A stretch of DNA of 32,000 bases from contig NZ_CP090438.1 in the NCBI RefSeq assembly GCF_021441885.1, forward strand, positions 1,803,730 through 1,835,729, written 5' to 3'. This stretch comes from Vibrio maritimus (GTDB taxonomy: Bacteria > Pseudomonadota > Gammaproteobacteria > Enterobacterales > Vibrionaceae). The number at the start of each line of letters is the position of its first letter. Position 1 is the stretch's first letter. Positions 12,812 to 12,976 of this stretch are shown piece after piece. Position numbers and translations under genes: made by a program. The notes beneath the pieces were generated by a model that saw only the letters and a list, made by a program, of their open reading frames with translations, ran no database searches and had not been told where the DNA came from.

Positions 12812-12839
12812 AATGCGCATTATCGAAATTATGTTACGG
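12812..12839 (+). other. dif-like site 1 of the phage attP
   Basis: AATGCGCATTA-TCGAAA-TTATGTTACGG. The XerC arm is 11/11 to the remembered V. cholerae dif2 arm. The XerD arm is 8/11 to TTATGTTAAAT. The core is 6 nt. Confidence 0.7.
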
Positions 12840-12943
12840 GCTAACCTTGTAAAACGATTCTCCCTCCTAGCATGCACGGCCTTGACAGACCGACATTGAG
12901 CAAGTCTATCGCCCACTTTTTACTGCTGTTAGGCAAAGCAAAC

Positions 12944-12976
12944 CCTCAACATAATTCCATGCAGATAATACGCACT
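12944..12976 (-). other. dif-like site 2 of the phage attP (inter-unit junction)
   Basis: CCTCAACATAA-TTCCATGCAGA-TAATACGCACT is inverted relative to site 1. The XerD-like arm is 8/11. The spacer is 11 nt, not 6. The XerC arm is the same one found in the chromosomal hybrid site at 3615-3625. Confidence 0.7.

Follow-up and report, generated by a model that had tools for sequence, protein, structure and literature searches.

The best described counterpart of the locus analysed here is the attachment site of CTXphi. It consists of attP1, with a 12-bp central region, and attP2, with one of 5-7 bp, which lie 90 bp apart and fold together in the (+) single strand (PMC4246890, PMC3089051). The resulting forked hairpin of attP(+) is credited to Val et al. 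2005 and Das et al. 2010 in passages of PMC3089051 and PMC4246890. Integration depends on XerC-only catalysis and is irreversible (PMC4246890, PMC3089051), and the 12-bp attP1 is not a substrate when presented as duplex DNA (PMC4246890). For CTXphi variants, integration is decided by pairing beside the XerC cut, where TGT goes with dif1 and GGT with difG (PMC3089051, PMC4246890). The same type of attP has already been described for RS1, CUS-1phi and Ypfphi (PMC4246890, PMC3089051).

Here, a window of 32,000 nucleotides from Vibrio maritimus was analysed, in which two inverted dif-like sites are found within a tandemly repeated prophage. We are highly confident that these form the attachment site of a CTXphi-class integrative filamentous phage (IMEX) of V. 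maritimus. A first-pass annotation of the same DNA had proposed a bipartite, folding attP of the CTXphi type, and this proposal is supported by similarity, gene orientation, a strand-specific fold, covariation and the host junction.

Prophage array and dif-like sites

Self-comparison of the window at an offset of 9351 revealed an array that starts at 3612 and continues beyond 32000, comprising three full copies and 336 nt of a fourth with zero mismatches between them. Host DNA to the left of 3612 includes a large cadherin-repeat protein gene, represented by its 3' part up to 3389, and then a terminator-like hairpin. Each 9351-bp unit represents a filamentous phage genome with its phage genes on the - strand (Table 1), while the + strand carries a 61-aa regulator-like ORF and a 469-aa ISNCY-family transposase. 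As the initiator, ssDNA-binding, coat, pIII-like, Ace-like and Zot/pI genes are all encoded on the - strand, this is the gene-sense and thus presumably the packaged strand. Gene orientation thereby confirms the earlier assertion that site 2 reads XerC arm, core and XerD arm in this order on the presumed packaged strand. The presence of at least three identical tandem copies together with an RstA/pII-type initiator matches the needs of virion production from a non-excising prophage. The perfect identity of the copies makes them uninformative as to whether the IS-bearing phage genome is still infectious.

Table 1 Coordinates of the features discussed, given as positions in the 32,000-nucleotide window.
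Feature	Position	Strand	Details
Left prophage/host junction, regenerated 28-bp dif	3598-3625	-	AGTGCGTATTA-TCTATC-TTATGTTAAAT
HU/IHF-family DNA-binding protein, 82 aa	12509-12757	-	PF00216, E = 5.9e-15
Site 1, attP2 equivalent, short spacer	12812-12839	+	AATGCGCATTA-TCGAAA-TTATGTTACGG, 6-nt spacer
Site 1, identical repeats	22163-22190, 31514-31541		+9351, +18702
Fork between sites 1 and 2	12840-12943	-	104 nt
Site 2, attP1 equivalent, long spacer	12944-12976	-	AGTGCGTATTA-TCTGCATGGAA-TTATGTTGAGG, 11-nt spacer
Site 2, identical repeats	22295-22327, 31646-31678		+9351, +18702
Complete 9351-bp prophage unit	12963-22313	-	Self-comparison of window
5-bp target duplication AAATC	12977-12981, 14525-14529
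IS1202-family IS (ISAjo2/ISAba32-type)	12982-14524	+	1543 bp, ends TGT...ACA
IS transposase, 469 aa, HTH-HTH-DDE	13039-14448	+	NF033594 ISNCY
Zot/pI	15766-16941	-
Ace-like protein	16952-17281	-
pIII-like protein	17271-18965	-
Major coat protein	19073-19285	-
gV-like ssDNA-binding protein	19544-19831	-
Replication initiator, pII/RstA type	19841-21163	-	Phage_CRI (E = 1.5e-53) and G2P_X_C domains

Scanning with a dif-like pattern (XerC arm, 5-13-nt spacer, XerD arm) identified sites 1 and 2 as the only good dif-like sites of the 9351-bp unit, with the host/prophage junction being the sole further one across the window. By chance, 0.0035 such sites would be expected per unit, as estimated from dinucleotide-preserving shuffles, and two or more sites were obtained in 0 of 2000 shuffles. 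The coordinates and sequences first reported for the two sites, their mutual inversion and the 104-nt gap between them are all correct, and both sites recur with the array period. The claimed complementarity also holds, with 9 of 11 positions forming Watson-Crick pairs between the two XerC arms and likewise between the two XerD arms. On the - strand, the four remaining arm positions correspond to three G.T wobbles and one A/G mismatch, while on the + strand they are A.C, C.A, A.C and C.T mismatches.

Folding of the attachment region

Positions 12800-12990 were folded for each strand separately using DNA parameters. The minimum free energy was -23.6 kcal/mol for the - strand and -16.6 kcal/mol for the + strand, favouring the gene-sense strand by 7 kcal/mol, and the stems alone accounted for -16.2 and -11.6 kcal/mol, respectively. 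The long-range stem that the first-pass annotation expected from folding the minus strand was recovered with 31 long-range pairs at a mean probability of 0.88, compared with 24 pairs at 0.73 on the + strand, and on the - strand it is present in the minimum-energy and centroid structures alike. The - strand folds better because three of the four arm mismatches turn into G.T wobbles there. Folding z-scores for the whole region are insignificant for both strands (-1.2 for the - strand and -0.2 for the + strand); overall folding stability was thus dropped as evidence, and the argument is based on the specific long-range stem and its pair probabilities. Based on this modelling, the packaged strand is predicted to carry an XerC-arm and an XerD-arm duplex formed by intra-strand pairing.

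In the minimum-energy fold, the 6-nt short core pairs with the first two and last four nucleotides of the 11-nt core, leaving a 5-nt bulge (TGCAT) on the strand that is the likely target of XerC cleavage. The predicted CTXphi fold has an equal 5-nt bulge in its top strand. Two details of the initial description need to be revised accordingly. The cores had been called non-complementary, yet all six nucleotides of the short core pair within the long one. Further, the structure had been described as an XerC-arm duplex, a bubble and an XerD-arm duplex; both duplexes are predicted, but the centre forms a 5-nt bulge instead of an open bubble.

Host junction and choice of crossover site

When read on the + strand, the left junction is a canonical 28-bp dif, ATTTAACATAA-GATAGA-TAATACGCACT. 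A scan of species-representative genomes matched the junction 25-mer in Vibrio maritimus CAIM 1455, whose flank shares 82% identity with window positions 2979-3625 and whose dif site itself is identical. Beyond dif, CAIM 1455 continues with chromosomal sequence (genes for MatP, FabA and a Lon-like protease) and not with phage DNA, which makes the site an unoccupied attB.

Since the host site and site 2 have the same XerC arm, a 14-nt stretch (3612-3625) is common to attB and attP; the crossover therefore fits the arm/core boundary but cannot be placed more finely. The prophage-side flank at the junction consists of AAATC followed by the IS, which is the flank of site 2, identifying site 2 and not site 1 as the crossover partner. 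With respect to the earlier claim that the prophage was linearised at the XerC-arm/core boundary of site 2, the choice of site 2 as partner is upheld, while the exact point is localised only within these 14 nt. The host core TCTATC and the long-site core TCTGCATGGAA have their first three nucleotides (TCT) in common and their XerD-proximal halves do not match; the site 1 core TCGAAA shares TC with the host core. By the cores compared, the window phage thus obeys the CTXphi core-pairing rule with a different triplet, TCT.

A route of the VGJphi type, in which the double-stranded replicative form recombines via one of the two sites (2 or 1) while the hairpin and the other site stay idle, would also place a prophage at dif. 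In its favour, the spacer of site 1 is of ordinary length (6 bp) and the TC of its core is shared with the host, in V. cyclitrophicus the same dif regions harbour single-site phages whose spacer measures 7 nt, and the junction sequence by itself does not distinguish single- from double-stranded use of site 2. We nevertheless regard this route as very unlikely. The site 2 flank at the junction speaks against site 1 as the crossover site, and the spacer of site 2 itself measures 11 bp; its CTXphi equivalent, attP1 with 12 bp, is no duplex substrate (PMC4246890). In place of a single attP with a 6-7-bp spacer serving as crossover site, there are two sites, and the crossover lies at the one with the 11-nt spacer. 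Double-stranded use of one site would moreover leave unexplained the paired layout, the fixed GAGG/ACGG arms, the strand bias and the compensatory changes seen in 20-44 elements (see below).

If the array was formed by integration of a folded attP at dif, its right end, located beyond the window, would read site 1, fork, CCTCAACATAA-TTCCATGCAGA-TAATACGCACT and then host flank, the latter resembling the CAIM 1455 flank GGGATATAGG... This hybrid of a host XerC arm and an 11-nt core is predicted to be non-functional. Exact-protein look-ups with the HU-like protein, pII and the transposase returned no record of a right junction.

Survey of related attachment sites and covariation

A blastn search of 12760-13040 against GenBank phages matched dozens of CTXphi records at features annotated as attP, ig-1, end repeat or attRS, as well as Vibrio phages V5, FR1 and VAI1/2 and several V. 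cyclitrophicus prophage elements. The two CTXphi sites are AATGCGTATTA-TACGCCA-TTATGTTACGG and AGTGCGTATTA-TGTGGCGCGGCA-TTATGTTGAGG, located 89 nt apart. When all records are brought into the orientation of the window, the - strand carries rstC of CTXphi as well as the structural genes of V5, FR1, VAI2 and the prophage elements. The comparison with CTXphi-class attP regions, suggested as a check in the first-pass annotation, thus yielded arms that are identical or differ by one nucleotide, together with a matching gene strand.

To extend the comparison, IMG/VR was scanned for TTATGTTNNGG followed, after 75-105 nt, by CCNNAACATAA, which returned 66 loci, about 50 of them true bipartite sites. 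Including GenBank, public viral contigs contain at least 44 distinct sites of this bipartite type. All true bipartite sites have TTATGTTGAGG at the long-spacer and TTATGTTACGG at the short-spacer site, with the exception of locus L052, where the short-site arm is GCGG. Spacer pairs vary (12/7, 13/7, 12/6, 11/6, 10/6, 9/7 and 9/8), and the 11/6 combination of the window is not unique as it also occurs in loci L021, L040 and L044. The strand on which the long site reads from XerC to XerD arm folds better in 38 of the 44 distinct sites and, among 41 informative loci, is the one with most long ORFs in 34. Strand and sites are arranged in the same way in the closest relatives of the window pII initiator.

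For covariation analysis, 20 diverse sites were aligned in packaged-strand orientation. The RNAalifold consensus of this alignment consists of exactly the two arm stems, in which 97% of cells are paired and 9 of 22 pairs show compensatory changes. The covariation score was reached by none of 500 shuffles, and pairing fell to 30-49% when the register was slid by 1-3 columns. It should be noted that the pattern by which the aligned sites were selected fixes the greater part of the XerD arms, and that the arms may covary in part because both sites follow one and the same host XerC/XerD preference. Five covarying pairs are located in the central region, outside the Xer-binding arms, where Xer specificity does not dictate sequence. 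In the XerD arm, one G.T pair and a neighbouring A/G mismatch are invariant in all 20 sites. The fork contains motifs conserved in the family, namely GT.G and G.ATCG as well as GGG and CCC beside the XerD arms. A conserved structure inside the 104-nt fork was also considered and rejected, as RNAalifold gave no consensus there across the 20 sites.

These family-wide features also bear on the notion that both sites are inert scars, that is, hybrid att leftovers of successive IMEX integrations that were amplified with the array and do not form a functional folded attP. Vibrio dif regions do gather IMEX arrays with many hybrid sites (PMC12715192), and the same XerC arm/IS half has been found joined to different XerD halves (see below). 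Scars would be expected in direct orientation, not in the inverted one observed, and stem covariation would not be expected from them at all. Both sites are moreover present in every unit, fixed upstream of the replication/regulation module as in CTXphi, with the same placement in the circular phage genomes V5 and VAI2, making a scar origin highly improbable.

Insertion sequence beside site 2

The element next to site 2 is an IS1202-family IS inserted into phage DNA (Table 1). Its transposase scores 509.6 bits against NF033594 (cut-off 250) and additionally contains HTH and rve domains. The terminal inverted repeats match at 14 of 25 positions and subterminal repeats are located at 12990-13007 and 13013-13030. 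Following the site 2 XerC arm, which ends at 12976, the sequence reads AAATC and then TGTAAGCGC..., and positions 14520-14529 read TGACA (to 14524) and again AAATC. The left end of the IS is thus located exactly 5 bp from the XerC arm.

The label 'dif site hunters' has been given to members of the ISAjo2/ISAba32 subgroup of the IS1202 family, known from Acinetobacter and other bacteria (PMC10132070; bioRxiv 10.1101/2022.12.17.520857). The window IS resembles them in its size of about 1.5 kb, its TGT...ACA ends, the 5-bp duplication (5-6 bp in the subgroup), the subterminal repeats and an HTH-HTH-DDE transposase, as well as in the 5-bp distance of its left end from the XerC arm and its fixed orientation. 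So far, the subgroup has been reported beside plasmid or chromosomal Xer sites of Acinetobacter, Klebsiella and Burkholderia (PMC10132070; bioRxiv 10.1101/2022.12.17.520857), whereas the window IS has targeted the attP of a filamentous Vibrio phage and, unlike described members, lies within a repeated phage unit. Neither of these two reports mentions phages or Vibrio for the subgroup, and no report of IS1202 together with filamentous phages was found in the literature searched. The position of an XerC-arm-targeting IS 5 bp from the XerC arm of site 2 is in keeping with this arm being a genuine Xer site.

In every copy the IS is flanked by phage DNA on both sides and therefore belongs to the repeated unit. 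As a mobile element in its own right, it targeted the attP and is no component of the integration machinery. It is located outside the attP stem, and the duplicated 5 bp keep the flank of the stem unchanged. Since each copy has, next to the junction, a complete transposase gene from an IS family that targets dif, one might suppose that the transposase, by targeting XerC arms, integrates the phage at dif without Xer recombination. This we consider scarcely credible: the host/prophage boundary is located inside a dif-like site, at least 5 bp from the IS end, and related CTX-type phages have the same attP and no IS. The AAATC duplication on both sides of the IS within phage DNA likewise indicates a simple 1543-bp insertion and not the boundary of the 9351-bp unit.

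In six V. cyclitrophicus records the left end of this IS is present and, as in the window, lies exactly 5 bp from an XerC arm. This shared end explains a 92%-conserved 74-nt block following the XerC arm, which was considered as a part of the attP and rejected. The V. cyclitrophicus copies have the same 5-bp flanks (GAGTA, TAGGC) beside different XerD halves. These recurring flanks weaken the idea of independent IS insertions into the attPs of different V. cyclitrophicus phages, and the copies probably adjoin chromosomal or hybrid dif sites, the phage halves beside the IS having probably been swapped by later integrations. Viral and metagenome contigs gave no matches to an IS-free 'empty site' of the window phage or to further copies of its site 2. 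A survey of marine Vibrio noted a 'transposase' of filamentous prophages without assigning a mechanism (PMC11630473), which is probably this IS.

We tentatively propose, with confidence somewhat short of even, that a 'dif hunter' IS entered phage DNA next to a CTX-type attP, at 5 bp from its XerC arm, and has become a component of a packaged, tandemly integrated phage genome. If so, the IS would travel from cell to cell in filamentous virions and reach the chromosomal dif region at each phage integration, and, with related IS copies located near dif-like sites in prophage arrays of V. cyclitrophicus, the association of IS and IMEX would be a recurrent one in vibrios. An IS that targets Xer sites and is found beside a phage attP suggests a route for the horizontal spread of such elements, which may matter more than the attP itself.

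HU-like gene

On the other side of the attP, the start of a gene for an HU/IHF-family protein is located 55 nt from site 1. No homologue was detected by tblastn in about 90 related loci fetched, and a set of 5.8 billion proteins contains only two clusters, one being the identical V. maritimus entry and the other a protein from Vibrio sp. 23023 with 71% identity. Based on these two results, the gene was rejected as a conserved partner of the attP; it is lineage-specific accessory cargo of the window phage. CTXphi and VGJphi require host HU for nicking of the replication origin (PMC4439123), and the HU-family protein of the window phage might supply the function that these phages take from their host.

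The combination of attP, IS and HU-like gene had been singled out in the first-pass annotation as a system-like novelty. This view is not supported, given that the IS is independent and has its own target duplication, the HU-like gene is without counterpart in the roughly 90 loci and the type of attP is known.

Proposed integration mechanism

By analogy with CTXphi, integration may proceed as follows. In the packaged single strand (the - strand of the window), site 2 would pair with the reverse complement of site 1, providing the 'top' and 'bottom' strand of the folded attP, respectively. The stem would comprise the XerC-arm duplex, a centre with the 5-nt bulge and the XerD-arm duplex, closed by the 104-nt fork. 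Host XerC and XerD would bind the folded site, and XerC would cut between the XerC arm and the TCT of the long core and swap the cut strand with the host dif AGTGCGTATTA-TCTATC-TTATGTTAAAT, the exchange being stabilised by the three shared nucleotides. Without homology between the XerD-proximal core halves, no second exchange is expected to follow, and the pseudo-Holliday junction would be resolved by replication. The resulting prophage would have a regenerated functional dif on one side and could accept further integrations, giving rise to tandem arrays. As both non-functional double-stranded sites would be retained inside the array, integration is proposed to be effectively irreversible, and virions would consequently have to arise by rolling-circle replication across tandem copies. 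In this scheme, XerCD binding and cleavage, XerC-only catalysis, the single-stranded substrate and irreversibility are carried over from CTXphi experiments, and the window sites are likewise presumed to be non-functional as duplex DNA from the behaviour of CTXphi attP1 (PMC4246890).

Comparison with known systems

Systems of the VGJphi and TLCphi types share with the route suggested here the use of host XerCD and integration at dif, and the VGJ type also shares XerC-only exchange with the CTX type. Their attP is one double-stranded site with a 6-7-bp spacer, and their integration is reversible (PMC4246890). The window phage instead has two inverted sites, and the one used has an 11-bp spacer.

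The attP of the window belongs to a known and common class and is a new example, not a new system. RS1, CUS-1phi of E. coli, Ypfphi of Y. pestis, the IMG/VR elements, V5, FR1, VAI1/2 and the V. cyclitrophicus prophage elements are all bipartite with GAGG/ACGG XerD arms, as is the window site. The window fork can be aligned with those of V5, VAI2 and the V. cyclitrophicus prophage elements at 72-80% identity. These elements differ from the window site in having XerC arms and cores tuned to other hosts, with ACTGCGCATAA and 13/7 spacers in the enterobacterial group. In contrast to the window phage, the CTX-class relatives fetched have neither an HU-like gene nor a complete IS inside the unit.

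The closest parallels are with CTXphi itself. The long-site XerC arm AGTGCGTATTA and the two XerD arms, TTATGTTGAGG and TTATGTTACGG, are identical in both, and the short-site XerC arms agree in all but 1 of 11 positions. [quoted passage not shown] Also shared are the identity of the first three nucleotides of the long core with those of the host dif core, a dif regenerated at one prophage end and tandem arrays. The two differ in their forks (104 and 89 nt, with different sequences), in the much weaker fold of the window site (-23.6 compared with -49.5 kcal/mol for CTXphi), in the phage backbone, which in the window includes a pII-type Phage_CRI initiator and a gV-like ssDNA-binding protein and lacks ctxAB, and in the IS located 5 bp from the XerC arm. 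The long core starts with TCT in the window, corresponding to a V. maritimus-type dif, and with TGT or GGT in CTXphi.

The single-stranded integration strategy of CTXphi, with the same arms and geometry, would thus also be in use in an environmental V. maritimus phage. In the literature consulted, support for the folded site comes from CTXphi experiments, to which the family alignment adds comparative support in the form of compensatory changes. Retuning to the new host is confined to the three nucleotides beside the XerC cut, TCT compared with TGT or GGT in CTXphi, and this triplet provides a simple and testable predictor of host range for CTX-class phages.

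Conservation of the predicted folded attP site

The phage attP site comprises two inverted dif-like sites and an intervening 104-nt fork (12840-12943) which, judged from sequence conservation, is not free spacer. In A2, an alignment of 20 diverse CTX-type sites, the fork motifs GT.G and G.ATCG, and likewise the GGG/CCC adjoining each XerD arm, show little or no variation between Vibrio and enterobacterial phages. No conserved structure within the fork was found in the same alignment. Fork identity among Vibrio members is 72-80%, even where the remaining genome does not align. 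The XerD-arm duplex contains a G.T pair and a neighbouring A/G mismatch in all 20 sites, an invariance suggesting that the imperfect XerD arm of the folded site is under selection.

Features in and around attP and in the host flank. Column numbers refer to the A2 alignment.
Feature	Position	Strand	Remarks
Very large cadherin/Big_9-repeat surface protein gene	15-3389	+	Adjoins dif; also in comparison locus L078
HU/IHF-family protein gene	12509-12757	-	82 aa, phage-encoded
Invariant G.T and A/G	12946-12947 with 12836-12837		Columns 40-41 with 162-163; arms GAGG vs ACGG
IS1202-family "dif hunter" IS with 5-bp duplications	12977-14529		Further copies 3626-5178, 22328-23880
Two ORFs between IS and zot	14723-15560	-	169 aa and 113 aa

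Accessory genes and tandem array

The HU-like protein has no counterpart in any other fetched CTX-type phage, and only two clusters of it are present in a set of 5.8 billion proteins. Since origin nicking of CTXphi and VGJphi requires host HU (PMC4439123), a copy encoded by the phage itself could matter functionally. The 169-aa ORF, which has a signal-peptide-like N-terminus, and the 113-aa ORF lack matches in Pfam, PHROG and NCBIfam as well as homologues in all related loci; they are probably accessory cargo, positioned close to the prophage border where the variable locus usually lies.

More than three tandem phage copies occupy 3612-32000 (28.4 kb) with zero differences between them, implying either that the array was amplified very recently or that one genotype integrated repeatedly. 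The dif-adjoining host flank shares only 82% identity with V. maritimus CAIM 1455, despite the V. maritimus annotation of the HU protein, so the dif-proximal region differs considerably between strains.

An IS within the phage attP region

The IS is complete (1543 bp), is flanked by the 5-bp duplication AAATC and sits exactly 5 bp away from the phage's attP XerC arm. Every tandem copy contains it, so the filamentous phage genome appears to carry the IS within itself. No phage or Vibrio targets of its ISAjo2/ISAba32 subgroup are described in PMC10132070 or bioRxiv 10.1101/2022.12.17.520857.

XerC arms also lie 5 bp from the same IS left end in prophage records of V. cyclitrophicus and in contigs from IMG/VR (L001-L004, L006, L009, L091, L092). 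There, the 5-bp flanks GAGTA and TAGGC are repeatedly paired with differing XerD-arm/core halves, and the transposase is degraded or truncated by the end of the record. The "transposase of the filamentous prophage" noted in PMC11630473 is probably the same IS, located beside a dif or hybrid site. That site is probably also where the tailless phage reported to "separate the transposase from the prophage" integrated.
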